Made by a program: the position numbers and the translations under genes. From contig JBDKRC010000352.1 in assembly GCA_039683575.1 (NCBI GenBank), positions 1-17,515 on the forward strand: 17,515 nt of DNA. Direction: 5' to 3'. The notes beneath the pieces are model-generated. The model had not been told where the DNA came from, ran no database searches, and was given only the letters and a program-made list of their open reading frames with translations. Source of the stretch: Armatimonadia bacterium (GTDB lineage Bacteria > Armatimonadota > Zipacnadia > Zipacnadales > UBA11051). The stretch's first letter is position 1; each line of letters begins with the position of its first letter. This document shows, piece by piece, positions 591 through 17,334 of the stretch.

Positions 591-617
591 TCAAGTCTCC
601 AGTTACCAATATCCGGA

Positions 618-646
618 TTGTCAGTCGCCGCATTGTAGCATATCAT
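618..646 (+). promoter_or_regulatory. Sigma70-type promoter for pgl (TTGTCA-N17-TATCAT)
   Basis: -35 TTGTCA at 618-623, 17-nt spacer, -10 TATCAT at 641-646. Each box matches consensus at 5/6 positions. Lies 52 nt upstream of the pgl start. Confidence 0.65.
632..640 (-). promoter_or_regulatory. Extended -10 promoter candidate for tkt (TGcTACAAT)
   Basis: Minus strand reads TGCTACAAT (TGn plus a 5/6 -10 box) about 40 nt upstream of the tkt ATG. No clear -35. Confidence 0.5.
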
Positions 647-698
647 CCCCGGTAAGTGGAGAGCATGTGGCAAAGATATGGTCGGTAAGGAGTGGCTG

Positions 699-1442
699 AT
701 GTCACAGACAGGGGTACAGGCGGAGGTACGGATATGCACCGATGCCGAGGATATGGCGGCCAAGGTAGCAGAGGTGATTGTGCGGCAGGCGACATGCTGC
801 GCGGGGCAGATGGGCCGGTTCACACTAGCATTGTCCGGCGGGCGCACCCCGGAGACGTTGTTTGAGGTGCTGGCCCGGGACTTTGCGATGAAGCTGCCCT
901 GGCAAAAGACGCACTTCTTCTGGGGCGATGACCGCTTCGTGCCGCATGAGGACCCGCGCAGCAACTACCGGCTGGCGAAGCAGGTTCTGTTCGACCATGT
1001 GCCATGCCCGGCGGGGAACGTGCACCCGATGCCGATCTTCTTCAAGGACCCGGAGGACGCCGCGGCGGACTATGAGGCGACGCTCAAGGGCTATTTCCCG
1101 GGCCCGTGGCCGCGCTTTGACATCGCGCTGCTGGGAATGGGAGATAACGGGCACGTGGCCTCGCTCTTTCCCCATAGCCCGGCACTGCGGGAGCATTCGC
1201 GCTGGGTAGTGGCGGTGCGGGAGGAGGAGGCGGAGCCGCCGCTGCGGCTGACGCTAACCCTGCCGGCGCTGAACCAGGCAGCGCAGGTGCATTTCCTGGT
1301 CACCGGGGAGGAGAAGGCTGAGAAGGTGGCCGAGGCGCTGTCGCCGCAGGCGGACGTACAGGAGTGTCCGGCTGCAGGGGTTCGGCCGGAGCGGGGTGAA
1401 CTGGTTTGGTGGCTTGATGAGGCGGCGGCCGCGAAGCTGTAG
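699..1442 (+). CDS. pgl: 6-phosphogluconolactonase
   Basis: Motifs LALSGGRTP, FFWGDDRFVPHEDPRSNYRLA, LLGMGDNGHVASLFP and RLTLTLPALN (DevB/Pgl type). Start moved from 678 to ATG 699, which follows a TAAGGAG RBS (247 aa). Confidence 0.95.
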   Translation: MSQTGVQAEVRICTDAEDMAAKVAEVIVRQATCCAGQMGRFTLALSGGRTPETLFEVLARDFAMKLPWQKTHFFWGDDRFVPHEDPRSNYRLAKQVLFDHVPCPAGNVHPMPIFFKDPEDAAADYEATLKGYFPGPWPRFDIALLGMGDNGHVASLFPHSPALREHSRWVVAVREEEAEPPLRLTLTLPALNQAAQVHFLVTGEEKAEKVAEALSPQADVQECPAAGVRPERGELVWWLDEAAAAKL

Positions 1443-1470
1443 CCGTTCCTGACGATATTGCTGAGATACG

Positions 1471-1500
1471 AAAAGAGCCCGACTGAGGTCGGGCTCTTTT
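1471..1500. terminator. Bidirectional intrinsic terminator
   Basis: Perfect inverted repeat AAAAGAGCCCGAC-TGAG-GTCGGGCTCTTTT between the convergent pgl and prepilin genes, with a T-run on each strand. Confidence 0.9.
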
Positions 1501-1523
1501 GGCTTTCGGGGCAGCGATGCTAC

Positions 1524-2171
1524 CTAGGACTTGTCGTGGCAGACCAGCCGGGCGGCACTGGGGCCGGAGATCACGTTCTGCTTGGACAGCCACTTGGCAT
1601 GCCCGTCGTAGAAGGCGATGTTCATGCCGCCATTGTGGCGGTCGGCGAACTGGGTGATGTTGGCGGGAGAACAGATCGGGCAGTAGACGTACGGCATGGT
1701 CGTGACGGCGTTGGTTTTCTCGAAGAAGACGCCGGTCTCAGCCGGCTGCTTGATATCGCCGACGCTGTTGATCCAGGCGGCGTACTTGGTGCGGTACGGG
1801 TAATGGCTCTGAACGACACCATAGCCATGGGCGATAGTGCGAGCAGGCAGGCCATCGGAGGCGTAGTAGCCCGACACAACATCGGCGGCCGACGGACAGG
1901 CCCAGATCTGCTCGTTCTTGATGTACGGGTTGAGCTTCTGCATGCCGTACTTGTTGTCAGAGCCCTCGAAGAGAGCGTAGGGAAGCTGCTCATCGTAGTC
2001 CTGGACGTACTGCATCAGGGCGGTGCCAAGCTGCCTGGCGTTGCTCAGGCAGGCTGTCTGGCGGGCTTTCTCTCGGGCTTTGGCGAAGACGGGGAACAGG
2101 ATCGCAGCGAGGATCGCAATGATTGCGATCACGACCAGCAATTCGATCAGCGTGAAACCGCGGCGAGACAT
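1524..2171 (-). CDS. Prepilin-type N-terminal cleavage/methylation protein, DUF1559-like, with C-terminal H-X9-DG motif
   Basis: Class III signal [29 protein letters not shown], then [27 protein letters not shown], and C-terminal [26 protein letters not shown] upstream. Confidence 0.93.
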
Positions 2172-2204
2172 GATCAGGGGGCCTCCTGGGGGTTTGATGG
2201 CGAA

Positions 2205-2234
2205 AGTATACCCCTACGCTCTGCCGCTAGTCAA
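2205..2234 (-). promoter_or_regulatory. Sigma70-type promoter for the prepilin gene (TTGACT-N18-TATACT)
   Basis: Minus strand has TTGACT at 2234-2229, an 18-nt spacer and TATACT at 2210-2205, inside the 95-nt gap between the ATPase and prepilin genes. Confidence 0.65.
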
Positions 2235-2266
2235 ACTGTTCTGAGATTTGCCGCGAACGACACACT

Positions 2267-4003
2267 TTAGCCACGCCTGAGTAACGCGGTTACCTGATCG
2301 CCATAGTCTGTCATGCGGTCGGCGTAGATGCCAAGCAGGCTCTCGATGCTGGTAATGCCCTCCTTGAGCTTGCGGAGGGCGTCCTGCTCCATGGGCTGCA
2401 TGCCCTCGTGTATGGCCACCTCCCTGGCTTCCTGCTCGCTGGTGCCGCTTAGCACCATTTCGCGCAGGCGCGGGGTCATGCGCACCATCTCAAAGATCCC
2501 GACGCGGCCCTTGAAGCCGGTGTTGGCGCACTCTTCGCAGCCATTGCCGCGGTATAGCTGCTCGATGCCGTGCTTCTGGAATAGCTCCGAGAGGAAGGGG
2601 ACGTCGGCGACGGCCTCCTGCGCGGAGTAGGCCACTTTGCACTTCTCGCAGACGCGGCGGGAGAGGCGCTGGGCGATAACGCCACGCAGCGCCGAGGCGA
2701 CGAGGTAGGCCTCGATCTTCATCTCCTGGCAGCGGACGAGAGCGGAGGGTGCGTCATTGGCGTGCATGGTACCGAGGACGAGGTGGCCGGTGAGGGCGGC
2801 GCGGAAGGCCATGTCGGCGGTCTCAGTGTCGCGGATCTCCCCCACGAGGATGACGTCGGGGTCCTGGCGCAGGATGGAGCGAAGGTGCTCGGCAAAGGTG
2901 AGGCCGATGTCGGGACGGACGTAGGACTGGTTGATGCCGCCCAGTTGGTATTCGACGGGGTCTTCGACTGATTCGATGTTGACGCCGCCGCTGCGGAGGC
3001 GGTGGAGGGCGGAGTAGAGGGTGGTGGTCTTGCCCGAGCCGGTGGCGCCGACCACCAGTACCATGCCGCGGGAGACGTGGAGCATCGCATCCATGGCTTT
3101 GCCGATGTAGGCGGGGAAGCCAAGCTGGTCCATGCCCACGATGACCCGGGACTTGTCGAGGACACGCATCACGATCTTCTCGCCGAAGATGGTGGGACGC
3201 GAGGAGACGCGGACGTCCACGCGCTTGCTTTGGACGGTGGTGGTGAAGCGGCCGTCCTGGGGCAGGCGGGAGTCGGCGATGTCCATGTCGGCCATGATTT
3301 TGAGGCGGGAGGTGAGCGCGGACTTTACGGTCTCGGGCGGGGACATGACCTTGTGGAGAACTCCGTCAATACGGTACCGTACGAGGAGTCCCTGGCGCTG
3401 GGGCTCGATGTGGATATCGGAGGCCCGCTGCTCGACGGCCTGGGAGATAAGGGCGGCGGCCAGTTTCACAATGGCGGGGGCGTCCATCAACCGGGCGATG
3501 GCGTCCACACCGTCAACCAGGCCGTCGGCGCCCTCACCGTACTTGGCTTCGAGATCCTTGGTTTCTTCTTCGGAGAAGTGGGTCTCGATGGCCCAGGAGA
3601 TGTCGGCGTCGGCGACGCGGACTGGTTTGACGCGCAGGCGGGTGGCGCGGGCGACCTCGTCCTGGGCGTGGATGTCCTCGGGGTCGGACATGGCGACTTC
3701 GACGATGTCGCCTCGGCGCTTGAAGGGGATGGCGCGGATGCGGTCGGCGACTTCTCGCGTCAGGCAGTGCACGAGGGCGGGATCGATCTCGGTCTGCTGC
3801 AGGGACAGCATGGTTTCGGGCAGTTGCTTGCTGGCCTCGTCCACCTCTTCGCGGGCCACAAAGCCGAGGGTGACGACGGTCTCAAGAATCGAGGTGCCGC
3901 CCTGCTTCGCGGCCTGGTAGGCCGTCTGCGCCTGTTGTTTGGTTAGTGAGCCCTGGCGCACCAGGGCGATGATGATCTCACGTTCGCGCTCAAAATCGGC
4001 CAT
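2267..4003 (-). CDS. GspE/PulE/PilB-family type II secretion / type IV pilus assembly ATPase
   Basis: ASDIHIEP, RYRIDGVL, LPQDGRF, Walker A GATGSGKTTT, VEDPVEY, Walker B LRQDPDVILVGEIRD, His box TGHLVLGTMHAND, and tetracysteine CEKC...CEEC followed by GFKGRVGIFE. Start moved from 4147 to ATG 4003 (GGGAGAG RBS; 578 aa). Confidence 0.95.
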   Translation of the reverse strand: MADFEREREIIIALVRQGSLTKQQAQTAYQAAKQGGTSILETVVTLGFVAREEVDEASKQLPETMLSLQQTEIDPALVHCLTREVADRIRAIPFKRRGDIVEVAMSDPEDIHAQDEVARATRLRVKPVRVADADISWAIETHFSEEETKDLEAKYGEGADGLVDGVDAIARLMDAPAIVKLAAALISQAVEQRASDIHIEPQRQGLLVRYRIDGVLHKVMSPPETVKSALTSRLKIMADMDIADSRLPQDGRFTTTVQSKRVDVRVSSRPTIFGEKIVMRVLDKSRVIVGMDQLGFPAYIGKAMDAMLHVSRGMVLVVGATGSGKTTTLYSALHRLRSGGVNIESVEDPVEYQLGGINQSYVRPDIGLTFAEHLRSILRQDPDVILVGEIRDTETADMAFRAALTGHLVLGTMHANDAPSALVRCQEMKIEAYLVASALRGVIAQRLSRRVCEKCKVAYSAQEAVADVPFLSELFQKHGIEQLYRGNGCEECANTGFKGRVGIFEMVRMTPRLREMVLSGTSEQEAREVAIHEGMQPMEQDALRKLKEGITSIESLLGIYADRMTDYGDQVTALLRRG

Positions 4004-4068
4004 ATGGCTCTCCCGCGGAGTGGCAGTTCGGAAAGGGACGACTACGGATGGTCCGAAGCAGAAGATAT

Positions 4069-4097
4069 CTTCGCCATGGGGTATGGTACTTTCCTGC
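4069..4097 (-). promoter_or_regulatory. SigH-like promoter motif GCAGGA-N19-GAAG upstream of the ATPase
   Basis: One copy of the recurrent motif (see findings). Spacer is 1 nt longer than in most copies. Confidence 0.4.
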
Positions 4098-4197
4098 CAG
4101 GGGCCCGGCTCAAAGGGGTCGAGTTGCCCTGCCGCGGCAGTGAACATTGGGCGGGCGCGGGGGGGTCAATCCTACCGATGAGGACAGGTGAACGTTC

Positions 4198-4830
4198 ATG
4201 ATGAAGGCATACTGGCGGCTGCTATCTGGCCTGACGGTACTGGGGATGCTGGCCGGGACCATGGTGCTGGGCGGCTGCCGCGGGGGCGCGCCACCTGCCT
4301 CGTCCACGCTGCCGCAGACAACGGTGCCAAAGGAGACAAAGCCCGTGGAGACCATGACTTCAACAACCCTCAAACTCACGAGCACTTCGCTTCAGGATGG
4401 AATGCCGATTCCGGTGCGGTACACGGCCGATGGCAAGAACCTGTCGCCACAACTGGCCTGGCAGGATGTGCCGGAGGGGGTGGCCGAGCTGGCGCTTATC
4501 GTGGAGGACCCGGACGCGCCAAGCGGGGATTTCGTGCACTGGGTGGTCTACAGTATCCCCTCAAGCATGAACGGGCTTGCCGAGGGCCTGCCGACCGGGC
4601 ATCACCCTGACGCGCAGGTGCCTTTCGTGCAGGGGCGCAACGACTTTGGCAAGGTTGGGTACAATGGCCCGGCGCCGCCGCCGGGGAAGGTACACCACTA
4701 TCACTTCCGGCTGGTGGCTCTGGACCAGAAGCTGAACCTGCCTGCAAATGCCGACAAGAAGGACCTGCGGCAAGCGGTGCGCGGGCATATCATCGCCGAG
4801 GCGGAGCTGGTGGGAACGTATCAGCGGTAG
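4198..4830 (+). CDS. YbhB/YbcL family (PEBP / Raf kinase inhibitor-like) protein, probable lipoprotein
   Basis: YTADGKNLSPQLAW, ALIVEDPDAP, FVHWVVY, QGRNDFGKVGYNGPAPPPG.VHHYHFRLVALD. N-terminal hydrophobic stretch ends in a VLGGC lipobox, followed by a Pro/Thr-rich linker. Start could be 4198 or 4201. Confidence 0.93.
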   Translation: MMKAYWRLLSGLTVLGMLAGTMVLGGCRGGAPPASSTLPQTTVPKETKPVETMTSTTLKLTSTSLQDGMPIPVRYTADGKNLSPQLAWQDVPEGVAELALIVEDPDAPSGDFVHWVVYSIPSSMNGLAEGLPTGHHPDAQVPFVQGRNDFGKVGYNGPAPPPGKVHHYHFRLVALDQKLNLPANADKKDLRQAVRGHIIAEAELVGTYQR

Positions 4831-4908
4831 TGGTTGTCAATCATAGTAGGTATCCGCAGCAGACTGCAGAGGGGCTGAGAAAACCGGGGCATTTCTGTCG
4901 TGCGGCAC

Positions 4909-4935
4909 TTGACCGTGGCCCGGTTTTGGTATATT
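4909..4935 (+). promoter_or_regulatory. Sigma70-type promoter candidate (TTGACC ... extended -10 TGgTATATT)
   Basis: TTGACC at 4909-4914, TG at 4927-4928, TATATT at 4930-4935. The spacer is only 15 nt, so the call rests on the extended -10. Confidence 0.45.
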
Positions 4936-5103
4936 GATATGCTCTGCGGTTGCCATCGGCCGCACTATTATTGACCCCGCGGACATCCCAAACCTCATCT
5001 TGAGCCACGGGAGACGGGACAGGTACAAAGGGGCGCAGCCTCCTGGCTGGGGCCTTTGTACTGCGTTTCGGGCGGGATCCTCAACTCGACAGGAGCACCA
5101 GCA

Positions 5104-6069
5104 ATGTCTTCCATGAATGTCTATTTCAGCGATTACACCATCGCCGAGGAACTCGATATCGAGGAGAAGATCCTCAGCGAGGCCGGGTTTACGATTGTTC
5201 GCGCGCAGTGCAGCACAGAGCAGGAAGTCCTGGATACCATCGAGGGTGTTGACCCCGTGGCAATCGTTACGCAGTGGGCGCCGATTACTCCGGCGGTCAT
5301 GGACAAGTGCCCGAACCTCAAGGTAGTGTCGCGCAATGGCATCGGCGTGGACAACATCGACCTGGCCTACTGCAAAGAGCACGGGATCGCCGTCACGAAC
5401 TCGCCGAAATACTGTACACCTGAGGTTGCGGACCATGCCATGTCGCTGATCCTGGCGCTGGGCCGCAAGCTCGTCTTCACGACTGACAAGGTTCGCGCGG
5501 GCGAATGGGGCACGGATTACCTGATCCCGATCCGCCGGCTGAAGGAATGCACCATGGGCGTTGTGGGCATGGGCGGCATCGGCCGGGCAGTGGTGGAGCG
5601 CGCGCGGCCGTTCTTCAAGGAAGTCATCGGTTTCGATGCGTACGCCAAGGACGTCGTAGTGGACGGCAAGCCGGTTGAGATGGTCTCCCTGGATGAGCTT
5701 CTGAGCCGCTCCGACTTTGTTGACCTGCACGTCCCCGGCACCGCCGAGACCAAGCATCTGATGAACGCCGAGGCCTTCGCGAAGATGAAGCCGAGCGCGT
5801 ACATCGTCAATACCTGCCGCGGTATCGTGGTTGACACCGACGCCATCGTCGAGGCGCTGCGGACCGGTCAGATCGCCGGCGCAGGCCTGGACGTGCACGA
5901 GCAGGAGCCACTGCCGATGGATCACCCGCTGCGCAGCTTCCCGCAGGTCATCATCACCCCGCATGCGGCGTTCTACTCCGAGGAAGCCGTTGATCAGGTC
6001 CGCGCGGATACGGTGATCAACGTTGTGAACATACTGCAGGGCACGGCGCCGATCAACCGGGTCGTCTAG
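5104..6069 (+). CDS. D-isomer-specific 2-hydroxyacid dehydrogenase (SerA/CtBP-like, no ACT domain)
   Basis: RNGIGVDNID, EVADHA, Rossmann GMGGIG, and catalytic Arg/Glu/His in NTCRG, DVHEQEP, TPHAAFYS. Start moved from 5056 to ATG 5104 after AGGAG at 5091-5095 (321 aa). Substrate cannot be assigned. Confidence 0.93.
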   Translation: MSSMNVYFSDYTIAEELDIEEKILSEAGFTIVRAQCSTEQEVLDTIEGVDPVAIVTQWAPITPAVMDKCPNLKVVSRNGIGVDNIDLAYCKEHGIAVTNSPKYCTPEVADHAMSLILALGRKLVFTTDKVRAGEWGTDYLIPIRRLKECTMGVVGMGGIGRAVVERARPFFKEVIGFDAYAKDVVVDGKPVEMVSLDELLSRSDFVDLHVPGTAETKHLMNAEAFAKMKPSAYIVNTCRGIVVDTDAIVEALRTGQIAGAGLDVHEQEPLPMDHPLRSFPQVIITPHAAFYSEEAVDQVRADTVINVVNILQGTAPINRVV

Positions 6070-6092
6070 GCCTGCGGAATACTCGAATACGG

Positions 6093-6128
6093 AAAAGGGA
6101 CGGAGCATAATGCTCCGTCCCTTTTTTT
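6093..6128. terminator. Intrinsic terminator, strongest on + and probably bidirectional
   Basis: AAAAGGGACGGAGCA-TAA-TGCTCCGTCCCTTTTTTT, 23 nt after the dehydrogenase stop. Confidence 0.9.
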
Positions 6129-6209
6129 GTGTTCGCTTGTTCCGGCATGCAGAGCATGCCTGTGTTTGGTGTTCACCTGTTCCGGCATGCGGAGCATGCC
6201 TACCACGCG
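6129..6209. repeat. Tandem pair of palindromic REP-like repeats (family A), 40-bp period
   Basis: GTGTTCgctTGTTCCGGCATGCaGAGCATGCCT at 6129-6161 and GTGTTCaccTGTTCCGGCATGCgGAGCATGCCT at 6169-6201. Core palindrome is GGCATGC-NGA-GCATGCC. 6181-6209 matches the reverse complement of 14750-14778 at 28/29 nt. Confidence 0.85.
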
Positions 6210-6217
6210 GAGAGGGG

Positions 6218-7114
6218 TTAGGGATTGGGCGTCAGGGCGAAGCCGCCTGCTGCGGTGTCGGCGTCTACTGCCACGATGAAGACCTGCGGGGGCTCACTGG
6301 TGGCGGTGTCGAGGGACTGGTAGCCGTTCGCGGAGAGACGGAGGGTGTAGTTGCCGGGCGCGAGGGGCAGGCGGAAGGTGCCGTCTTCCAGATTGACGCC
6401 GCTGGTGGCGGCGGGCTCGGTCTGGCCCTCGGGGTAGGCTTCAACAACTGTGGTGGCCCAGGCTTCCTGCGGCAGGACGCTGCCGGCGAGCGCTCCGTAG
6501 CTGGGTTCGACGCTCTCCACCTGCGTGAGGCGGATGCCAGTGGGCTTGAGCATATAGCGGCCGTTGCCGGTGACGTTGATGGCGCGGGCGGGGTCGAAGT
6601 CCAGGACGATGGTGCTGGTGGTTCCGGCTTCGACGGTGAAGTCACCGACGATCTTCAGGCCGCTCTGCTGCCCGCTGGGCGTCACCAGCGGGAGGCGGAC
6701 CTCGGGAGCATCCGCGAGGGTGGCGTAGTTGACCGGCAGCTCGCCATTGACGTTGGGGGCGAGCACGAGGCGGAGTTGCGAATAGGTGCCAGCCGGGACC
6801 GGAGCCTGGCCCAGGAGCAACTGCTCGTAGTCAAGCTGCATGATGTCCACGACGCGGGCGGGGTTGAACGTGGCCACTACAGGCAGACCGGCGCCGGTCT
6901 CAGTGCCTTCGTCGCCCTCGGGAACGACACGGATTTCACTGATCGCCACCACAACGCTGTTGTAGCCGGACTGGTCGGTGATTGCCACCTTCAGAACGCC
7001 GGTGGTGCCGGTGCGCCCATCGCTATCACTCCCTCCGCCACCCCCGCAGCCCATGATCAGCAATACAGCGGTGCCCAGGCAGACCAGGGCCAGGATCCAG
7101 GATGTTCGTGACAT
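6218..7114 (-). CDS. DUF4382-domain lipoprotein with a C-terminal carboxypeptidase-regulatory-like (prealbumin-fold) domain
   Basis: Lipobox LIMGC plus Gly linker. DUF4382 pattern: LKVAITD, VPAGTYSQLRLVL, TPSGQQSGLKI, IVLDFD, GRYMLKP. C-terminal GALAGSV...DGTFRLPLAPGNYTLRLSANGY. Start moved from 7162 to ATG 7114 after GGAGG (298 aa). Confidence 0.85.
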   Translation of the reverse strand: MSRTSWILALVCLGTAVLLIMGCGGGGGSDSDGRTGTTGVLKVAITDQSGYNSVVVAISEIRVVPEGDEGTETGAGLPVVATFNPARVVDIMQLDYEQLLLGQAPVPAGTYSQLRLVLAPNVNGELPVNYATLADAPEVRLPLVTPSGQQSGLKIVGDFTVEAGTTSTIVLDFDPARAINVTGNGRYMLKPTGIRLTQVESVEPSYGALAGSVLPQEAWATTVVEAYPEGQTEPAATSGVNLEDGTFRLPLAPGNYTLRLSANGYQSLDTATSEPPQVFIVAVDADTAAGGFALTPNP

Positions 7115-7230
7115 AGTGTGTAATCCTCCAGCAGTTTCAGACGCGGGCGCGTTTGAGCGCAATGCGGCTAGCTCTGGGAGGAGTGTTCCCCGCGTGGTTC
7201 AAGGCATTGTCTGGGATGCCGCAAGACTGT

Positions 7231-7257
7231 GCAGGAGGGGGCCGGAGCGTGTTGAAG
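7231..7257 (+). promoter_or_regulatory. SigH-like promoter motif GCAGGA-N17-GAAG upstream of the macroglobulin gene
   Basis: GCAGGA at 7231-7236 and GAAG at 7254-7257. Copy of the recurrent motif. Confidence 0.5.
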
Positions 7258-7366
7258 GTTAGGTCAGTGGGAATAAAGAGGTCACGTGACGTCTCAAAGG
7301 TTCAGACGAGACCGAGAGCAATTGTTGACCACGCCGCTGACGGCGTAGTCGCAGGAGGCAGGAGCC

Positions 7367-10300
7367 ATGTCTGAGCGTACTCGATATCAGGAAGCTGTGG
7401 TGGTCATGATGGCGCTTTTGGCGCTGGTGACGGTGCTGGTGGTGTGCATGTCCCCGCTGCGCGCGCAAGATCTGCGGGCGCTGGGGATGCAGGTTGTGGG
7501 GCCGCGGGAGGTGCTGGCCGACAGCGTGGCGGCGGTGCGGGTCATCGTGACCGACCACGCCGCGCGCAAGCCGGCGCAGGGGGCCCTGGTGTCGATCCGG
7601 CTCGCGAAGCCGGATAATAGTCTTTCCGAGCTCTTGCTCAACGCCCGCGCTGATGGGCGCGGGACCGTTGACATGAGCTTTGAGGTCCCGGCAGTGGCGC
7701 CGGGGGCGTACGAGTTTGTCATCCGCGCGCGATATGGCGGGGATACCGAGGAGACGCGGCAGGCGGTGCGGGTGACGGCTGGCAACCAGGTGTTGCTGAC
7801 GACCGATAAGCCGCTGTACAAGCCCACCCAGGTGGTGCATGTGCGGGCGTTGGCGCTGCGCAAGCCGAGCTTGAGGGCGCTGAAGGGCGAACAGTTGACC
7901 TTTGAGATCAGCGATCCGAAGGGCAACAAGGTCTTCAAGCAAAAGGCCCAGACGAACGACTTCGGCGTGGCCTTTACGGAGTTTCAGCTTGGTGACGAGA
8001 TCAATCTCGGCGACTATCGCGTGGTGTGCCTGCTCGGCGACGAGCGGGTTGAGAAGAACATCACGGTCAAGCGGTACGTGCTACCGAAGTTCCGGGTGAC
8101 TGTCACTCCCGACAAGCAGTACTACCTGCCGGGTGAGACGGCGCGGGGAACGGTGCAGGTGGACTACTTCTTCGGCAAGCCGGTGACGGACAGCAAGGTC
8201 AAGCTGACGCTGAAGACGTTTGACGTGGCTTTCAAAGAGATCGCGGTCCTGACCGGCAACACGGACAGCAAGGGGACGTGGAAGTTTGAGACGCGGCTGC
8301 CGAACGAGTTTGTGGGCCAGCCGCTTGAGCAGGGAAAGGCGTTCCTGCAGTTCGAGGCGGAGGTCACGGACCAGGCCGAGCATACCGAGCGGGCGGTCGT
8401 GTCATCGCGGGTAGCGGCGGCGCCGCTGGAGATCCATGCCGTACCGGAGAGCGGGACGCTGGTGCCGGGCGTCGAGAACATCGTGTATGTGATGGTCTCG
8501 CGCCCGACGGGCGAGCCGGTGAAGGCGCGGGTGCGGTACGAGTTCGCACAGGTGCAGGGGGTGACGGTGAAGGTACTGTCGGAGAAGGAACTCGTGACCG
8601 ATGAACTGGGTCTTGCGGAGCTGAGGGTAGTTCCGGAAGTGGCCGCGAACGCCGGGAATGCAATGGGCAAGCGCGCCGGGCGAGGGTGGGGCCCGCAGTT
8701 GGTGGACTTTGACATCGCGTCGGGCATTGAGCTTATCGTCAGCTTCAGCGCCACGGCAACCGACGGGACGAAGGCTGAGCAGCAGGCGAAGCTGCCGGTG
8801 GGCGGAGGCAGCGCGGACACGGCGCTGCTTCTGCGGACGGACAAGGTGCTGTCGCGGGTGGGTGACACCGTCGAGGCTGTGGCTTACACGGGGGCGCAGC
8901 GGGGCACGGTGTACTTCGATGTGGTCAAGGACCGGCAGACGATGCTCACGCTGGCGGCTGACATCGAGCAGGGGACGGCGAGGGTGCGGATTCCGCTGAC
9001 GCCAGAGCTTAGCGGAACGGTGTGGGTGTCGGCGTACCGGATTCAGCCCCATGGAGAGATTGTGCGCGCGACGCGGCCGGTGTATGTGAACCCAGCCAAT
9101 GACCTCAACATCGCAGTGCGGCCGGACAAGGACGTGTACCGCCCCGGACCGGATAACATCGCGAAGATCAACTTCGCTGTGACCGATCCGCAGGGGCGGC
9201 CAGTGGCGGCGGCGCTGGGTGTGAATGTGGTGGATGAGAGCCTGTTCGCCATTCAGGAGATGCAGCCGGGGCTTGAGAAGGTGTACTTCTATCTCGAAAA
9301 GGAACTGACGACGCCGCGGTACGAGATACATGGGTACGAGATGCCGAACCTGATCGGCGGGCCGGTGCGACGCGGCGAGGCCATACCGCTGGAACAGGAC
9401 GCCCTCAAGCAGGAGGCGGCGCGGGTGATGATGGCGTCGGTGAAGGCGCCGGAGACCGCGGTCTTCTCGCAGGACACGTATGCCGAGCGGCTGGAGCAGA
9501 TGCGGCAGAAGGGGCTGGAGCAACTGCGGCCGCAGGCGCAGAAGATACAGCAGGCGATCGAGAAGTACAACCAGACGCACCAGGGGCATATGCTCAAACC
9601 GAAGGACCTGCTGACGCCGGTGGTGCAGGCGGGGCTGCTGAAGGAGAAGGACCTGTTGGACCCGTGGGGGACGCAATTTGCGCTGGCGGCGGTGGACCCG
9701 CAGCAGGACGTGCTATGGAATGTCATTCTGTGGTCATGGGGCCCCGACAAAGAGAAGGGCACGGAGGATGACCTGTATGTGCTGAGCGGGTCGCCGTGGA
9801 CGGTCTACACGAGCCTGGACGAAGCAAGGGAGATGCGGTGGGACGGCCGCTTCCTCAAGGGCGGGGTTGTAATGGCGCTGCCAATGGCGGCGGCGGCGCC
9901 AGGGGTGGTGCGCGAGGCAGCGATGGACAAGGCCGTTGCGACGAATGCAGCGGCAGCGCCGGGAGCGGGCGAGAAGCCTGTACGGGTGCGGCAGTTCTTC
10001 CCCGAGACACTGCTGGTGGAGCCGGCGCTGATCACTGACGGCAATGGCAATGCGACGCTGAACGTGCCGATGGCAGACGCGATCACCTCGTGGCGGATCA
10101 CGGCGCTCGCCAACAGCATGTTGGGCGCGCTGGGCTCGACCACGGGTAACCTGCGCTGCTTCCAGGACTTCTTCATCGACATTGACCTGCCGGTGGCGCT
10201 GACCCAGGGCGACCGGGTCTCGGTGCCGGTGGCGGTTTACAATTACCTGCCAGGGCCGCAGAAGGTGCGGCTGGAACTGACGAAGGCCGACTGGTTCGAA

Positions 10301-12088
10301 CTGACCGGGCCGGATAAGCACGAGTTGGAGATCGGCGCGAACGACGTGGACGTGCGGTACTTCACGATTACCGCCAAGAAGATCGGGAGTGGCAAGCTGC
10401 TCGTGCATGGCTATGGCAGCAAGATGAGCGATGCCATCGAGCGGGTGGCCGAGGTGGAGCCGAACGGGAAGCTGTTTGAGGTGAGCGCGAGCGGGCGGCT
10501 GACCGGCAGTAAGACCGAGACGCTGAACATCCCCGCCGAAGCCATCGCAGACGCCAGCAACATCCTCGTGAAGGTCTATCCCGGCATCTTCTCGCAGGCC
10601 GTGGAAGGGCTGGACAGCATCCTGCGCATGCCGTCGGGGTGTTTTGAGCAGACTTCGTCCACCACCTACCCGAACGTGCTGGTGCTGGACTATATGAAGA
10701 CCATCGGGCGCATCTCGCCTGAGATCCAGATGAAGGCCGAGGGGTTCATCAACAACGGCTATCAGCGTCTCGTGACCTTCGAGGTGCAGGGCGGAGGGTT
10801 CTCGTGGTTCGGCGACGCGCCGGCGAACAAGGTGCTCACCGCCTTCGGGCTGATGGAGTTCCACGACATGGCGCGGGTACATGAGGTGGACCCGAACCTG
10901 ATCGCACGGACGCAGCAGTGGCTCCTGAGCCAGCAGGGAGCGGACGGGGCGTGGGAGGCGGACAAGGCGTACCTGCACCAGGAGGCGTGGGGGCGCATCC
11001 AGAACAGCAAGCTGCCGCCGACGGCCTACGTGGCCTGGGGCCTGACCTACAGCGCGTGCAAGGAGCCGGGCGTGGCGAAGGCCATTAGCTACCTGCGGGA
11101 GCATGCGGACGAGACCAAGGATGCGTACGTGCTGGCGATGGTCGCCAATGCGCTGGTGAATGCGGACCTGCCCACAGGGGCGCTCGACAAGAGCACCGAG
11201 GCGGTGCTGGACCGGCTGGTGGGGATGGCCAAGCGCAAGGACGGACAGATGTGGTGGGAGACGCAGATGACGGGTATTACCCACAGCAGCGGGCAAAGCT
11301 CCGACCTGGAGGCAACGGGGATGGCGGCACTGGCGCTGATCGCCGCGGGGCGCAACAGCGAGGCGACTGAGGTGCTCAACTATCTCATCGCCCAGAAGGA
11401 CCCGCAGGGGACGTGGTATTCGACGCAGGCGACAACGCTGGCGCTGCGGGCGCTGATGGCCAGCCAGAAGGCGAGCACGAGTCTGGTCAATGGCGAGGTC
11501 AGCGTGATGATCAACGGCCAGCAGGCGGCGGCGTTCGGGCTGACACCGGAGAATGCCGACGTGATGCGCCAGGTGGATGGGCGGAAGTTCATCAAGCCGG
11601 GCGCAAACGAGGTCACAGTGAAGTTCGAGGGCAAGGGCAGTACGCTCTACCAGGTGGTGGGCAAGTACTACCTGCCATGGGAGAAGCTGCGACCGGCTGC
11701 GCGCGAAGAGCTGGACATCAAGCTCGCCTATGACCGCACCACGCTGAACAAGGACGACATGGTGACAGCGGACGTGACGGTGAAGAACAACCTGCCGGGG
11801 ACCACGAGCATGATCATCGTGGACCTGGGCATTCCGCCGGGGTTTGAGGTGCAGAGTGAAGACTTTGCGAACCTCGTTGAGAAGGGGACGCTGCAGAAGT
11901 ACAGCCTGACCGGGCGCCAGATCATCTGCTATCTGGAGAAGCTGGACCCGCAGCAGACGGTGCAGTTCAGTTACCGGCTGCGGGCGAAGTTCCCGATCAA
12001 GGCGCAGACGCCCAAGAGCCGAGTGTATGAGTACTACAACCCGGACCGGCAAGCAGAAGCGCGGCCGGTGGACATGGTGGTGCAGTAG
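7367..12088 (+). CDS. Alpha-2-macroglobulin family / thioester-containing protein (MG domains, bait region, TED, receptor-binding-like C-terminus)
   Basis: 1573 aa with an N-terminal signal peptide. MG2 motif TTDKPLYKPTQVV; YVLPKFRV; VVDES; post-bait VRQFFPET and DAITSWRITA; thioester MPSGCFEQ (Cys codon 10640-10642); GTWYSTQAT; C-terminal SMIIVDLGIPPGF...RVYEYYNP. AGGAGG RBS at 7353-7358. Confidence 0.96.
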   Translation: MSERTRYQEAVVVMMALLALVTVLVVCMSPLRAQDLRALGMQVVGPREVLADSVAAVRVIVTDHAARKPAQGALVSIRLAKPDNSLSELLLNARADGRGTVDMSFEVPAVAPGAYEFVIRARYGGDTEETRQAVRVTAGNQVLLTTDKPLYKPTQVVHVRALALRKPSLRALKGEQLTFEISDPKGNKVFKQKAQTNDFGVAFTEFQLGDEINLGDYRVVCLLGDERVEKNITVKRYVLPKFRVTVTPDKQYYLPGETARGTVQVDYFFGKPVTDSKVKLTLKTFDVAFKEIAVLTGNTDSKGTWKFETRLPNEFVGQPLEQGKAFLQFEAEVTDQAEHTERAVVSSRVAAAPLEIHAVPESGTLVPGVENIVYVMVSRPTGEPVKARVRYEFAQVQGVTVKVLSEKELVTDELGLAELRVVPEVAANAGNAMGKRAGRGWGPQLVDFDIASGIELIVSFSATATDGTKAEQQAKLPVGGGSADTALLLRTDKVLSRVGDTVEAVAYTGAQRGTVYFDVVKDRQTMLTLAADIEQGTARVRIPLTPELSGTVWVSAYRIQPHGEIVRATRPVYVNPANDLNIAVRPDKDVYRPGPDNIAKINFAVTDPQGRPVAAALGVNVVDESLFAIQEMQPGLEKVYFYLEKELTTPRYEIHGYEMPNLIGGPVRRGEAIPLEQDALKQEAARVMMASVKAPETAVFSQDTYAERLEQMRQKGLEQLRPQAQKIQQAIEKYNQTHQGHMLKPKDLLTPVVQAGLLKEKDLLDPWGTQFALAAVDPQQDVLWNVILWSWGPDKEKGTEDDLYVLSGSPWTVYTSLDEAREMRWDGRFLKGGVVMALPMAAAAPGVVREAAMDKAVATNAAAAPGAGEKPVRVRQFFPETLLVEPALITDGNGNATLNVPMADAITSWRITALANSMLGALGSTTGNLRCFQDFFIDIDLPVALTQGDRVSVPVAVYNYLPGPQKVRLELTKADWFELTGPDKHELEIGANDVDVRYFTITAKKIGSGKLLVHGYGSKMSDAIERVAEVEPNGKLFEVSASGRLTGSKTETLNIPAEAIADASNILVKVYPGIFSQAVEGLDSILRMPSGCFEQTSSTTYPNVLVLDYMKTIGRISPEIQMKAEGFINNGYQRLVTFEVQGGGFSWFGDAPANKVLTAFGLMEFHDMARVHEVDPNLIARTQQWLLSQQGADGAWEADKAYLHQEAWGRIQNSKLPPTAYVAWGLTYSACKEPGVAKAISYLREHADETKDAYVLAMVANALVNADLPTGALDKSTEAVLDRLVGMAKRKDGQMWWETQMTGITHSSGQSSDLEATGMAALALIAAGRNSEATEVLNYLIAQKDPQGTWYSTQATTLALRALMASQKASTSLVNGEVSVMINGQQAAAFGLTPENADVMRQVDGRKFIKPGANEVTVKFEGKGSTLYQVVGKYYLPWEKLRPAAREELDIKLAYDRTTLNKDDMVTADVTVKNNLPGTTSMIIVDLGIPPGFEVQSEDFANLVEKGTLQKYSLTGRQIICYLEKLDPQQTVQFSYRLRAKFPIKAQTPKSRVYEYYNPDRQAEARPVDMVVQ

Positions 12089-12090
12089 CG

Positions 12091-12118
12091 GCAGGAACTT
12101 CTGAACCGGATGGTGAAG
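12091..12118 (+). promoter_or_regulatory. SigH-like promoter motif GCAGGA-N18-GAAG upstream of mscL
   Basis: GCAGGA at 12091-12096 and GAAG at 12115-12118, 48 nt before the mscL start. Confidence 0.5.
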
Positions 12119-12166
12119 CTAACGTTATTGTACTATAAGCCACCAATACGAAGGGGAGTGAACCGG

Positions 12167-12601
12167 GTGCTGAAAGAGTTCAAGGAATTTGCGCTGAAGG
12201 GGAATATGTTGGACCTGGCGATAGGCATCATCATCGGTGCAGCCTTCGGCACTGTGGTAAAGTCGCTGGTGGAGGACGTCATCATGCCGCCCATCGGGCT
12301 GCTGCTGGGCAATGTGAACTTCTCGGACCTGTATGTCAACCTCTCCGGGCAGCAGTATCCTTCGCTTGCCGCTGCGACGGCCGCCGGTGCACCGGTGATG
12401 CGTTACGGGAATTTCCTCAACCAGATCATCAGCTTTGTGGTTGTGGCCTTCGCGGTCTTCATGATCGTCAAGGTGATCAACCGGATGCGGCGGGAGAAGG
12501 TCGAGGAGCCGACGGAGAAGTGCTGCCCGTTTTGCTGCAGCGACATTCCCGTCGCGGCGACGCGCTGCCCGCAGTGCACGTCGGAGCTAGAGGCGCACTG
12601 A
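12167..12601 (+). CDS. mscL: Large-conductance mechanosensitive channel MscL with a C-terminal Cys-rich (zinc-ribbon-like) tail
   Basis: (M)[43 protein letters not shown]...[11 protein letters not shown]; tail CCPFCC...RCPQC. Start placed at GTG 12167 after AAGGGGAG (144 aa). Confidence 0.96.
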
Positions 12602-12620
12602 GAAGCAACTCATCGGTAGG

Positions 12621-12656
12621 CAGAAGGGCCCGGCAGTGATGCCGGGCCCTTTTCTG
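12621..12656 (+). terminator. Intrinsic terminator after mscL (possibly bidirectional)
   Basis: AAGGGCCCGGCA-GTGA-TGCCGGGCCCTT, 12-bp stem with a TTTT tract. Confidence 0.85.
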
Positions 12657-12669
12657 TTCGTAGGGTAGC

Positions 12670-12737
12670 GAGGCGGGCGAGACGCCCGCACTACGCGGGG
12701 TGGCTGGCTGAGGCGGGCGAGACGCCCGCGCACCTAC
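12670..12737 (-). repeat. Tandem pair of GTAG-headed REP-like palindromes (family B), 40-bp period
   Basis: GAGGCGGGCGAGACGCCCGC occurs exactly at 12670 and 12710, each followed closely by CTAC. On the minus strand this reads GTAG-(n)-GCGGGCG-TCT-CGCCCGC. Confidence 0.85.
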
Positions 12738-12745
12738 GGCCGTGG

Positions 12746-13555
12746 CTACAGCAGGAACTGGTCGAGATACTTTTTGCTTAGCAGCAGCATCTTCGTGCGC
12801 ATTCTGTGGGCGCGGTCTCCCCAACCCCACACGTCCCCGTGCGGTTCGAAGGAGAGGTACCCGCTGTAGTCGGCCTCATACAGGAAGGCCATGACCTTGC
12901 CCCACTGGATGTCGCCCATGCCGGCGGGCGGCTGGGCGGCGAGCTCGCCGTTGTGGTAGAGGTGCTCTTTGATGTGGACGTAAGCGATCTTGTCGCCGTG
13001 GCGGCGGAGGACTTCGAGGTAGTCATCGCCGTGGTGCATCCAGTTGGCAGGATCGAACTTGATGCCTACGTCCGGCAGGCTTTCCCAGACGGCCTCGTAG
13101 GAGTAGAGGCTGGTGAAGAAGCTGTTGCCATGGACGGCGTAGAAGGCCGGCCGGAGGCCTGCCTGGCGCATCTTGTCCATGAACGGGGGGAAGACTTCGG
13201 TAAAGGCGGCGACATTGGCGGCGAGGTCCCCATCCGGGACCTGCCCGCCTCCGGTGACGAACACCTCGGCGCCGAGGGTGTGCGCGAACTCAATGGCCCG
13301 GTTGAGCATCAGGTGAGCTTCCTGGCGTTCGGCGGCGTCGGGGGAGGTGTGGTTCCACCCCCAGAGGCCCAGAGCGGAGGCTTTCACGCCATAGTCGTCG
13401 AGAATCGTCCGCATCTGAACGACCGTGTCGGCGGTCACGTCTTTGAAGGTCGTCCACCAGTTGAACTCCAAGCCGGTGAAGCCGTGGTCCGCGGCGAAGA
13501 GGGCGTCTTCTTTGAGCTTCTGTAGGTCATTGCTACCGATAAAGCCGAGTTTCAT
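12746..13555 (-). CDS. Sugar phosphate isomerase/epimerase family protein (xylose isomerase-like / AP endonuclease 2 TIM barrel)
   Basis: AADHGFTGLEF, AIEFAHTLGA, GIKFDPAN, IAYVHIKE, GMGDIQW, YSGYLSFEPH. GGGAGG RBS upstream. Confidence 0.88.
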   Translation of the reverse strand: MKLGFIGSNDLQKLKEDALFAADHGFTGLEFNWWTTFKDVTADTVVQMRTILDDYGVKASALGLWGWNHTSPDAAERQEAHLMLNRAIEFAHTLGAEVFVTGGGQVPDGDLAANVAAFTEVFPPFMDKMRQAGLRPAFYAVHGNSFFTSLYSYEAVWESLPDVGIKFDPANWMHHGDDYLEVLRRHGDKIAYVHIKEHLYHNGELAAQPPAGMGDIQWGKVMAFLYEADYSGYLSFEPHGDVWGWGDRAHRMRTKMLLLSKKYLDQFLL

Positions 13556-13603
13556 CAGGGGCCTCCCAAGGGTAAGAGGAACAAGTAGCTCGTGTGCCTG
13601 TTT

Positions 13604-13641
13604 CTTCTCTGCGGCAGGTGCGAGACCTGCCTGAGCCGAAG
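13604..13641. promoter_or_regulatory. Overlapping divergent SigH-like promoter motifs
   Basis: Plus: GCAGGT 13614-13619, N18, GAAG 13638-13641. Minus: GCAGGT 13630-13625, N17, GAAG 13607-13604. Each points at one of the flanking divergent genes. Confidence 0.5.
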
Positions 13642-13672
13642 TGAGTAAGCATTGAAATCGTGGAGGTGTCGC

Positions 13673-14740
13673 ATGTTTCGTCTACTGTCGCTGTGCACGC
13701 TAAGCTTGTTGGTCTTGTCTGCTGTGAGTGAACCCTTGATGGCGCAGAACCAGGCGCCCACCAAGACCCTGTTTGTCACGTTGCTCACCAAGACTCAACA
13801 GCCGATGAAGATACCGGGCATGGAGAACATGCCCCAGATGCCGGGCATGCCGACCGGAGCGCCGACGTGGAACGTCATCGGGCGCGCGAAGTACGGCGAG
13901 AAGCCTGTGGAGCCGCTGTTTGTGACCGTGCCGACGGACCTGAAGCTGCCAGACAACAAGCTGATGCTGCATCTCCCCAAACCGGCTACGACAGAAGGCG
14001 GTCCAGGCCGACCCGGCGGGCAGGGCGAGACGAAGAATGTGGAAATGGTCAACAAGCTGTACTGGCACCCGGACGAGGCCAAGGGGCCGGTCACCGAGAG
14101 CTTCAAGATCAAGGGTGGCAAGATGAGCGGGGGCGGGATGCCGGGGATGGCCATGCCCAATCTCGACGATATCATCATCGCGCAGGAGGGGTATGAGGCT
14201 GAGGGCAACGAAAGCAAGCTCCCGGTGAACGTCAAGGGACAGGGCAACTATGTGTGCAACACCGGCGGGACGGCGACGCTGGACGGCTTCCTGCCGCCGC
14301 TGCAGGTCACCTCGCCCGACATGAGCAAGCTCACGCCCGAAGAGGGCATACTGGTCAAGTGGCAGCCTATTGCAGGGGCGCGGGGCTATCTGATCTCGGC
14401 CAACGGCATGAATATGGACAATGCTGACGAGGACAACATGAAGATGACCACGATCTCGTGGTTCAGTACCCTGGTGCAGCCGCCGATGCGCATTCGCGGC
14501 GGCTATCAGCAGGAGACGACCATCGCGGACGATCTGGCCAATGGGATACTGCTGCCGGGAAATACCACAAGCTGCAAGATCCCGGGCGGGATCTTCAATG
14601 ACGTGATGATGCTGATGATCCGCGTTGAGGCCATCGGCAACGACTTCTACAGCAAGGCCGACGGCAAGACCGTCTTCGGCACCATCCGCTCGGAATGGGA
14701 TGGTATAGGGATGATGATGAAGATGGGCGGCGAAGGGTAG
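13673..14740 (+). CDS. Secreted Met/Gly/Pro-rich hypothetical protein
   Basis: ATG 13673 follows GGAGGT at 13662-13667. Sec-type signal peptide MFRLLSLCTLSLLVLSAVSEPLMA/Q. GC3-biased codons, 355 aa, followed by a terminator. No family recognised. Confidence 0.85.
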   Translation: MFRLLSLCTLSLLVLSAVSEPLMAQNQAPTKTLFVTLLTKTQQPMKIPGMENMPQMPGMPTGAPTWNVIGRAKYGEKPVEPLFVTVPTDLKLPDNKLMLHLPKPATTEGGPGRPGGQGETKNVEMVNKLYWHPDEAKGPVTESFKIKGGKMSGGGMPGMAMPNLDDIIIAQEGYEAEGNESKLPVNVKGQGNYVCNTGGTATLDGFLPPLQVTSPDMSKLTPEEGILVKWQPIAGARGYLISANGMNMDNADEDNMKMTTISWFSTLVQPPMRIRGGYQQETTIADDLANGILLPGNTTSCKIPGGIFNDVMMLMIRVEAIGNDFYSKADGKTVFGTIRSEWDGIGMMMKMGGEG

Positions 14741-14749
14741 TCCTCCGAG

Positions 14750-14778
14750 CGCGTGGGAGGCATGCTCCGCATGCCGGA
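14750..14778 (+). repeat. REP-like palindrome, family A (third copy)
   Basis: CGCGTGGGAGGCATGCTCCGCATGCCGGA, 28/29 identical to the reverse complement of 6181-6209, with a GTGG head. Confidence 0.85.
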
Positions 14779-14795
14779 CTAACCTTCAGTGAATC

Positions 14796-14834
14796 CAGCG
14801 GGGCGCACCATTCGGTGCGCCCCGTTGTTATTCT
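14796..14834 (+). terminator. Intrinsic terminator
   Basis: CGGGGCGCACC-ATTC-GGTGCGCCCCG followed by TTGTTATTCT. Confidence 0.75.
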
Positions 14835-14835
14835 A

Positions 14836-14888
14836 CAGTAGGGCAGGCGGCTCGCCTGCCGGACGCGGGCGAGCCGCCCGCGCTACTG
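14836..14888. repeat. Inverted REP doublet (REPIN-like), family B
   Basis: CA-GTAG-GGCAGGCG-GCT-CGCCTGCC-GGA-CGCGGGCG-AGC-CGCCCGCG-CTAC-TG: two GTAG-headed hairpins in inverted orientation. The right arm differs from the 12670/12710 core only in the loop. Confidence 0.8.
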
Positions 14889-14891
14889 GCA

Positions 14892-17216: not shown

Positions 17217-17266
17217 GAGAAGTAACAGCTCCTTTTGATACCGGCTTGTTAGCCAACAACGGGTCA

Positions 17267-17334
17267 GTTCAGCATGACTGCAGTGGTATCCTCCCGCCGC
17301 GGCCAAGCAGGTCCGGACAAGTTGCCCGCCGAAC
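17267..17334. promoter_or_regulatory. Back-to-back divergent SigH-like promoter motifs
   Basis: Minus: GGAGGA 17294-17289, N18, GAAC 17270-17267. Plus: GCAGGT 17307-17312, N18, GAAC 17331-17334. Confidence 0.45.

Follow-up and report, generated by a model that had tools for sequence, protein, structure and literature searches.

A pseudopilin head is found built into the trigger region of a bacterial alpha-2-macroglobulin (A2M). The protein is encoded on contig JBDKRC010000352.1 of the Armatimonadia bacterium assembly GCA_039683575.1, of which positions 1 to 17,515 make up the whole stretch of DNA analyzed here (the window). This protein of 1573 residues, P0001, carries between the LNK-like segment and the plug of an A2M trigger a folded domain homologous to the globular head of GspG, the major pseudopilin of type II secretion systems (T2SS). 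The A2M family is the textbook example of a spring-loaded protease trap. To our knowledge, the only folded domain known until now at its trigger site is the anaphylatoxin (ANA) domain, which defines the complement factors. The anatomy proposed for P0001 associates intact thioester and trigger motifs, a calcium-site pilin head at the ANA position and a disordered linker before the plug, and this description is very probably right. A first-pass annotation of the window had proposed that a pseudopilin-head module is fused into a thioester A2M directly ahead of the bait linker, and this arrangement was recovered. The relevant features are as follows, with residue numbers referring to P0001.

7367..12088, forward strand: gene of the 1573-residue A2M-family thioester protein P0001 (open reading frame, translation, Pfam).
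7394..7450, forward strand, residues 10-28: N-terminal hydrophobic segment, export signal or signal anchor (Kyte-Doolittle value 3.03).
8075..8086, forward strand, residues 237-240: YVLP in the MG2-MG3 linker, channel side of the plug-in-channel trigger (alignment to A2ML1).
8831..9250, forward strand, residues 489-628: A2M_BRD domain, ending in the first half of MG6 (Pfam).
9245..9475, forward strand, residues 627-703: LNK-like conserved segment, predicted helical (49% mean identity across 32 relatives).
9476..9841, forward strand, residues 704-825: GspG/T2SSG-like pilin-head module (Pfam, AlphaFold, Foldseek, VIA-align, profile against PDB).
9734..9775, forward strand, residues 790-803: putative calcium-site loop (HMMER alignment to the GspG chain 29jd_A).
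9842..9982, forward strand, residues 826-872: disordered Ala/Gly/Pro-rich linker, probably the bait proper (AlphaFold, relatives).
9983..10009, forward strand, residues 873-881: RVRQFFPET, equivalent of the BR-C/Nt-alpha' plug, with which the second half of MG6 begins (alignments).
Residues 884-971, forward strand: A2M domain (Pfam).
10589..11458, forward strand, residues 1075-1364: thioester domain (Pfam TED_complement, E 7e-50).
10637..10651, forward strand, residues 1091-1095: thioester motif GCFEQ (read in the translation).
Residues 1479-1564, forward strand: A2M_recep domain (Pfam), shortly followed by the end of the protein.

Judged from its sequence, P0001 is an exported, single-chain thioester protease trap of the A2M type. 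TED_complement, MG2, MG3, A2M_BRD, A2M and A2M_recep are all matched above the Pfam cut-offs, and the order of the domains is canonical for the A2M superfamily, including the receptor-binding/MG8-type domain at the C-terminus. The thioester motif looks intact and of the Cys-x-Glu-Gln type, with a Phe after the Cys, where A2ML1 has Cys-Gly-Glu-Gln according to PMC9156758. GCFEQ is unchanged in all 33 aligned family members. It is also seen in 72 of 81 module-bearing sequences (P0001 included), the nine open reading frames in which the motif was not found including several that are cut by contig ends. Residues 10-28 form the sole hydrophobic 19-mer of P0001, none being found between residues 29 and 1573, and because this single hydrophobic segment is N-terminal the protein is predicted to be exported or anchored by its N-terminus. 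A database protein 98% identical to P0001 is labelled "MG2 domain-containing protein [Armatimonadia bacterium]", and related proteins are present in public databases under similarly generic names.

The interval to which attention had first been drawn, 9533-9778, lies in the frame of the 7367-12088(+) gene and corresponds to residues 723-804. The sequence strings read there and their placement, between VVDES (residues 621-625) and an Ala-rich stretch ending in VRVRQFFPET (residues 872-881), were found as described, although the folded unit is somewhat wider and extends from about residue 704 to residue 825. This unit forms a domain of its own, homologous to the head that GspG-type major pseudopilins carry. 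The resemblance to GspG was initially proposed from the letters of the window, and three sequence comparisons now agree with it. The proposed HMMER comparison with the Pfam T2SSG family (PF08334) gave 21.5 bits for the isolated residues 701-834, just over the cut-off of 21 (E 2.6e-4), with an alignment spanning positions 19-101 of the 108 in the profile. A phmmer search of 1.84 billion representative proteins with the module segment returned 37 matches at E<=1e-3, including bona fide pseudopilins with prepilin-type N-termini (P0016, E 6.5e-6; P0029, E 1.9e-4). Eighteen of the 20 matches that are at least 632 residues long are A2M-family proteins, in which the match falls between the Pfam A2M_BRD and A2M domains, and 12 of these 18 pass T2SSG, with 21.4-57.4 bits.

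The third comparison made use of an alignment of 81 modules, namely that of the window and 80 more cut from related loci. Scored one by one against T2SSG, 56 of these modules come in at E<=1e-3, the best at 4.2e-10. The profile derived from the alignment matches eight PDB sequences at E<=0.01, all of them GspG-type major pseudopilins: 29jd (E 1.6e-10), 3g20 (3.5e-10), PulG (1t92/5o2y, 4.9e-9), then 5wda, 2kep, 4lw9, 3gn9 and 3fu1. When the PDB was searched with the single module sequence, the sole match was also a GspG, a weak one (E 0.63), and the T2SSG/GspG neighbours retrieved by an ESM Atlas feature search were sub-threshold (0.77-0.78). The module has no counterpart in the solved A2M chains, as had been anticipated: human A2M, A2ML1, CD109 and C3-C5 align to P0001 only from about residue 869-874 onward.

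The module is predicted to have the pilin-head fold, in which an antiparallel sheet packs against a long helix. An AlphaFold2 model of residues 701-834, obtained with 26 aligned sequences, has a mean predicted local distance difference test (pLDDT) score of 92.4 and a predicted template modelling score of 0.84, and it comprises a helix of 34 residues, an alpha-beta loop with two short helices and a four-stranded sheet. In the larger context of a model of residues 560-1000 (18 sequences, mean pLDDT 68.6), the module keeps pLDDT values of 90-96. The structural search advised in the first-pass annotation points in the same direction. Foldseek found nothing in the PDB at E<=1e-3, and its first ten rows are all major pseudopilins (GspG, EpsG, PulG), with E 0.02-0.18, probability 0.57-0.98 and template modelling scores of 0.35-0.47. 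With VIA-align, the Z scores are 7.0 for 3gn9, 6.8 for 3g20, 6.7 for 3fu1, 6.5 for 4lw9 and 5.9 for 1t92, the superpositions covering 86-99 residues at a root-mean-square deviation of 3.5-4.0 Å; minor type IV pilins rank next. Since Z values below 8 are middling by the tool's own note, the fold assignment leans on its agreement with the sequence evidence.

The calcium site of the pseudopilins can also be recognized. In the HMMER alignment to 29jd_A, the ligand positions are W791 (backbone), D794, E796 (backbone), T799, D801 and D802, with identical spacing. According to a 2026 preprint (PMC13081927), calcium is bound in OutG and PulG by the side chains of D117, T122 (Ser in PulG), D125 and perhaps D124, together with the backbone carbonyls at positions 114 and 119; D794, T799, D801 and D802 map one-to-one onto D117, T/S122, D124 and D125. 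Among the 81 modules, G792, D794, D801 and D802 are strictly conserved (81/81) and T799 is found in 77, one more having a Ser, while the two backbone-ligand positions, W791 and E796, vary freely. Ligands and fold-determining residues considered together (D765, W767, G792, D794, T799, D801 and D802) are kept in 75-81 of the 81 modules. The predicted calcium site is clearly under selection.

What the module lacks is the part that pilins require to insert into the membrane and to polymerize. It shares with GspG, PulG, OutG and EpsG of the T2SS the fold of the head, its DPWG turn and the D,T,D,D spacing of the calcium loop, but it is devoid of their prepilin leader, N-methylation motif and hydrophobic alpha1N helix, and, unlike them, it is embedded in a 1573-residue protein outside any T2SS operon. 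No match to the Pfam N_methyl family was obtained in P0001 at E<=1, and no hydrophobic 19-mer occurs between VDES and FPET in 96 module-bearing relatives. When the module is aligned with P0016, its beginning falls roughly where the membrane helix of the pilin ends. In the absence of a prepilin leader and of this hydrophobic N-terminal helix, the module can neither undergo processing by a prepilin peptidase nor polymerize in the manner of a pilin, and a role as pilus subunit is excluded.

Where the module lies along the A2M chain can be defined by comparison with A2ML1. According to PMC9156758, MG6 contains a single insert made up of LNK and bait, the plug, Arg730-Pro734 in A2ML1, sits in the LNK/MG2/MG3 channel, and the bait is replaced by an anaphylatoxin domain in the complement factors. 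On the N-terminal side of the module, the A2M_BRD/MG6a region is modelled as beta strands (pLDDT 79-92 in the model of residues 560-1000). The helices of residues 627-703, modelled in isolation from the remainder of P0001, have a pLDDT below 50, and their position agrees with the LNK region as described in PMC9156758. On the C-terminal side, residues 881-1000 are modelled as MG6b/MG7 strands. RVRQFFPET aligns with VRKYFPET in human A2M, with VRQYFPET in A2ML1 and with the FPES region in C3, and R875-Q-F-F-P879 falls on the A2ML1 plug. The YVLP of P0001 corresponds to the YVLP of A2ML1, Tyr214-Pro217 in the numbering of PMC9156758, which is offset by +18 from that of the PDB chain, as worked out from the A2ML1 alignments. 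Because both motifs, RQFFP and YVLP, align to A2ML1 and are invariant in 33 of 33 sequences (R873, R875, F878, P879, E880 and T881 on one side, Y237, L239 and P240 on the other), the trigger is considered to be conserved. From residue 873 on, P0001 aligns to human A2M from residue 730 (6tav_A) and to C3 from residue 761 (9rf3_A), as well as to A2ML1, CD109, C5 and C4, that is, to the stretch directly following the bait or, in complement, the ANA domain. It is thus the ANA position of complement C3, C4 and C5 that the module occupies.

Between the module and the plug lies a segment of a very different nature. Residues 826-880 have no secondary structure in the model of residues 560-1000 (pLDDT 28-34). 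In the 77 of 81 sequences in which an FPE motif was found, the distance from the D-D-[LIV] of the calcium loop to the xFPE motif ranges from 48 to 123 residues, with a median of 73. The linkers of relatives are rich in Ala (17%), Gly (15%), Arg (9%), Glu (8%), Pro (8%) and Met (6%) and cannot be aligned. Being disordered and variable in both length and sequence, the linker behaves like a bait. The initial suggestion that the module itself might serve as bait is for this reason not retained, its fold and calcium site being invariant, whereas the linker that follows is disordered and hypervariable, as baits are.

A mechanism can be proposed on this anatomical basis. The N-terminal portion of the MG6 bait insert has been replaced by the folded pilin-head domain of about 120 residues, and the true bait would be the hypervariable linker of residues 826-872, where proteases would cut. 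Linker cleavage would allow the plug to retract and the trap to fire as in A2ML1, and the thioester, once exposed, would capture the protease covalently. The module would remain uncut throughout. Before cleavage, it would form a calcium-stabilized knob on the entry side of the channel, which would hold the bait out and stop it from slipping. After cleavage, it would remain attached on the LNK side, at the trap's mouth, where its bulk would provide a steric cover over the bound protease. The role assigned here to the module, a calcium-stabilized knob for presenting the bait and, later, for shielding the protease once trapped, is tentative and leans slightly toward the doubtful side. The account as a whole, with an A2M trap, the linker as bait and an uncut module as knob and shield, appears evenly poised between right and wrong.

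Several observations weigh against this account. Within the whole of P0001, T2SSG scores 16.0 bits (E 0.013), below the cut-off, and 25 of the 81 modules do not reach E 1e-3 with this family. The structural scores are middling (best Foldseek E 0.02; Z at most 7). Across 32 relatives, the mean identity to P0001 is 51-60% for MG2, BRD, MG6b/7 and TED, 31% for the module (35% for its core) and 26% for the linker, which has 18% gaps. The module is less conserved than the core of the protein, which would fit a passive spacer and equally a surface under diversifying selection, and its divergence speaks against a constant surface for docking onto the body of the A2M. The function of the module is moreover deduced from its position. 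The module behaves like a domain with a fixed scaffold and a surface that drifts or diversifies.

The layout is old, common and widespread in uncultured bacteria. At E<=1e-3, the single module matches 113 of 401 sampled genomes of the phylum, in 75 of 208 genera; among the matches listed, all lie in long open frames, mostly of 1500-1760 residues, the shorter ones being cut off, apparently at contig ends. Nine strong orthologues missed by this single-module query all carry the module when searched with a hidden Markov model (HMM). A scan of one genome per species detected at least 568 relatives among 599 candidate stretches, and one module is present in each of the best 80 loci, which come from over ten phyla, a sample biased toward module bearers because the ranking query included the module. 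One copy in 80 of these 80 loci and in nine of nine orthologues points to purifying selection on the presence of the module. The module-bearing loci belong to Armatimonadota (several classes), Planctomycetota (Pirellulales, Phycisphaerae, Sedimentisphaerales, Thermoguttaceae), Hydrogenedentota, Poribacteria, TA06, WOR-3, KSB3/Vecturithrix, Omnitrophota, Cloacimonadota, Acidobacteriota and one metagenome-assembled genome of Bacillota. A quick tree of the C-terminal 690 residues is not congruent with the phyla, rows from Acidobacteriota, Planctomycetota, KSB3 and Poribacteria being nested among those of Armatimonadota in such trees, and this lack of congruence suggests horizontal gene transfer. 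Some relatives have three to four modules in tandem (P0006, P0009, P0028, P0030, P0033); in P0033 and P0040, the layout is of an acidobacterial type, with three pilin-like modules and a Pfam CarboxypepD_reg domain.

Two multi-module A2Ms, P0006 (1986 residues) and P0028 (1406 residues), start with a zf-HC2 anti-sigma-factor zinc finger (E 6e-12 and 2e-11, respectively), which suggests that some such traps are wired to an extracytoplasmic function (ECF) sigma factor as membrane sensors. T2SSG-like heads also occur in free-standing proteins, with one to four heads and no prepilin N-terminus (P0012, P0015, P0018, P0025, P0031, P0032, P0035, P0041), some of which have lipoprotein-like signals; the pilin head thus appears to be a portable module of general use outside the cytoplasm.

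Alternative roles for the module deserve to be weighed against the knob and shield. The first is recognition or docking: the pilin head would bind a specific partner, be it a target protease, for which it would be an exosite, a glycan, or part of a type IV filament or of a T2SS, and would thereby bring trap or prey to the bait. The invariant scaffold and fast-evolving surface (31-35% identity versus 51-60% for the core) are as expected of recognition domains, and it is this fast-evolving surface that keeps the recognition reading alive, together with the decoy reading considered below. A related GCFEQ clade, in which a homologue of the prepilin alpha1 helix is found at the same site, gives a hint of a tie with pilin biology. 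Two genes upstream of the A2M gene have also to be considered.

1524-2171, reverse strand: prepilin of the N_methyl plus DUF1559 type (Pfam).
2267-4147, reverse strand: GspE/PilB-type ATPase with an MshEN domain, adjoining the prepilin gene (Pfam).

These two genes, reported in the first-pass annotation as lying 3-6 kb away, are indeed present, and the 6.2-Mb genome has only 11 T2SSE-family ATPases. The functional link that their proximity seemed to offer is not supported. In 20 module-positive genomes chosen for their long contigs, with the A2M gene flanked on either side by about 7-10 kb, a tblastn search with 12 neighbours from the window retrieved GspE in one locus and the prepilin in four, all others being found in 0-2. 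All-against-all clustering of open reading frames revealed no conserved partner either, no cluster outside the A2M gene being present in more than 4 of 21 loci. In view of these counts, the neighbourhood is not regarded as part of the feature. The genome moreover has at least 151 matches to DUF1559-type prepilins, a count for which 150 of 244 candidates were scored; such genes are likely domain donors and likely chance neighbours. Its single T2SSG-scoring open reading frame (G000:C151, L143:3933-4400(-), 83 bits) is unlike the module (BLASTP E 2.2), which also speaks against this reading. Finally, docking onto a pseudopilus, which the first-pass annotation envisaged, is excluded in the form of co-assembly by the missing hydrophobic N-terminal helix. 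Recognition or docking is on the whole unlikely. By eye, the N-terminus of the open reading frame L143:3933-4400(-) is unlike the prepilin-type N-termini of P0016 and P0029.

A second possibility is that the module is a decoy or a calcium-gated bait. It would be a protease target in itself, either by mimicking pilins attacked by the proteases of competitors, or by unfolding and being cut on loss of calcium, thereby firing the trap. PulG without calcium is disordered and is degraded in vivo (PMC13081927), and the calcium-ligand positions are invariant across the modules. If the mechanism described in PMC9156758 applies, the RQFFP plug should be freed by cleavage anywhere on its N-terminal side, and a fast-evolving surface would suit an arms race. 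A folded, calcium-bound domain is however a poor protease substrate, and everything expected of a bait is already provided by a separate disordered, hypervariable and long linker. That the module mimics the pseudopilin of the organism itself is not supported, given its dissimilarity to the only T2SSG-scoring frame of the genome. The decoy idea received no support, and with its calcium-gated variant it is considered improbable.

The module could also be a tolerated passenger, a fragment of an abundant pilin-like gene that landed in a permissive loop and acts only as a spacer. The MG6 bait insert does take large additions, such as three to four tandem modules, CarboxypepD_reg or hydrophobic segments; donor genes are abundant, and the module is less conserved than the core. 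On the other hand, one intact copy is kept in the 80 best loci and the nine orthologues, across more than ten phyla, with its calcium-ligand and fold-determining residues, and no loss was seen inside the module clade, so that a mere passenger seems a shade more improbable still. Release of the module by two cleavages as a diffusible signal, like C3a from C3, is a pure analogy suggested by the shared ANA position and by the low confidence predicted for the preceding segment; with no candidate receptor and no conserved processing site noticed upstream of the module, for which no systematic search was made, it is judged highly improbable.

A variant of the bait site is found in related A2Ms. Five GCFEQ A2Ms of the same phylum (L130-L134) keep the VDES-to-FPET frame, the two motifs being 252-308 residues apart, and have no HMM match to the module even at E<=10. 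Together with L140, they carry about four hydrophobic, membrane-spanning-like segments at the bait site (genomes G056, G142, G246, G094, G251 and G071), and Pfam finds nothing meaningful in this transmembrane-type insert. The last hydrophobic segment is a clear homologue of the DUF1559-type prepilin alpha1 helix in three to four of the six sequences, L140 included, where it continues into a motif of DUF1559 prepilins. Residues ~175-245 of the L131 insert (L131:2018-2803:-, P0049) match prepilin-like frames of 200-500 residues in 396 of the 401 genomes, with E about 1e-11 to 1e-13 and 45-61% identity, and match the prepilin of the window itself with 58% identity over 33 residues. Quick trees place the transmembrane-type rows as a grade beneath the module clade. 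In approximately unbiased (AU) tests, neither a single clade of transmembrane-type rows (p 0.52) nor a single clade of all module-bearing rows (p 0.34) was rejected, and no order of events between the two types is therefore claimed. The pilin head and the transmembrane-type insert might be what remains, in two complementary parts, of an entire pilin that had been inserted in the bait region, the family being then tied to calcium sensing or to the biology of pilins or membranes. This scenario is as improbable as the decoy. If it were true, the trigger might be membrane-pinned, or gated by the calcium-dependent folding of the pilin head, and the protein would be more than a generic protease trap.

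The relationship of P0001 to the metazoan inhibitors is clear. Human A2M, A2ML1, CD109 and insect TEP1 have the same domain order, the thioester and the LNK plus bait insert in MG6, and the plug RQ[YF]FP and channel YVLP motifs are common to metazoan A2M inhibitors and P0001; phmmer E values against solved metazoan A2M-family chains range from 1e-10 to 1e-16. The differences are the bacterial host and the bait region, which is an unstructured peptide in the metazoan proteins and consists in P0001 of a folded pilin-head domain followed by a longer disordered linker. Complement C3, C4 and C5 are similar to P0001 in having a small folded domain between LNK and the channel-threading segment, and their activation by a cut between their ANA domain and the threaded segment can be likened to the cut postulated here in the linker. 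The domains themselves differ in fold, with no Pfam match to the anaphylatoxin (ANATO) family in P0001 at E<=1 and fold matches that are all pilins. The gap from domain to plug also differs, with about 50-120 disordered residues in module-bearing A2Ms versus about a dozen in C3, C4 and C5, and no C345C/NTR domain was matched by Pfam in P0001 at E<=1.

Other bacterial A2Ms are known from enterobacteria (ECAM/YfhM of E. coli, Salmonella A2M). They are exported, monomeric thioester traps, and yfhM is paired with pbpC. P0001 differs from the ECAM/YfhM type by the pilin-head insert and by the absence, outside the A2M gene, of any gene cluster shared by more than 4 of 21 loci. The bMG models of that type score below their cut-offs in P0001 (bMG10, 14.5 bits versus 26.2), for which TED_complement and A2M_recep give the best fit. 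A full-text literature search, in which few subscription journals were covered, found no paper on a pilin-head module in a macroglobulin. The feature had initially been put forward as a candidate for an undescribed system. What emerges is a variant of the domain architecture of one protein and not a multi-gene system.

P0001 and its relatives would represent an independent bacterial solution to a complement-like design, with a calcium-site pilin head at the ANA position and the same plug-in-channel motifs. They offer a natural experiment on what a folded domain beside the bait does for triggering, specificity or shielding, and they indicate that a soluble pseudopilin head is able to serve as a portable extracytoplasmic module. 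The protein should be easy to express and assay, and it may be of use in the engineering of A2M-based protease capture tools.

Between the GspE and A2M genes are found those of a PEBP protein, a 2-hydroxyacid dehydrogenase and a DUF4382 protein, and downstream of the A2M gene those of MscL and of a TIM-barrel isomerase. The MscL gene, 12110-12601(+), begins 22 nucleotides past the A2M stop codon and may be co-transcribed with the A2M gene; this adjacency was seen in 0 of 20 related loci. The open reading frames 13652-14740(+) and 14892-17306(-), of 362 and 804 residues, respectively, match no Pfam family at E<=0.1, and they may not both be real genes in this GC-rich DNA.

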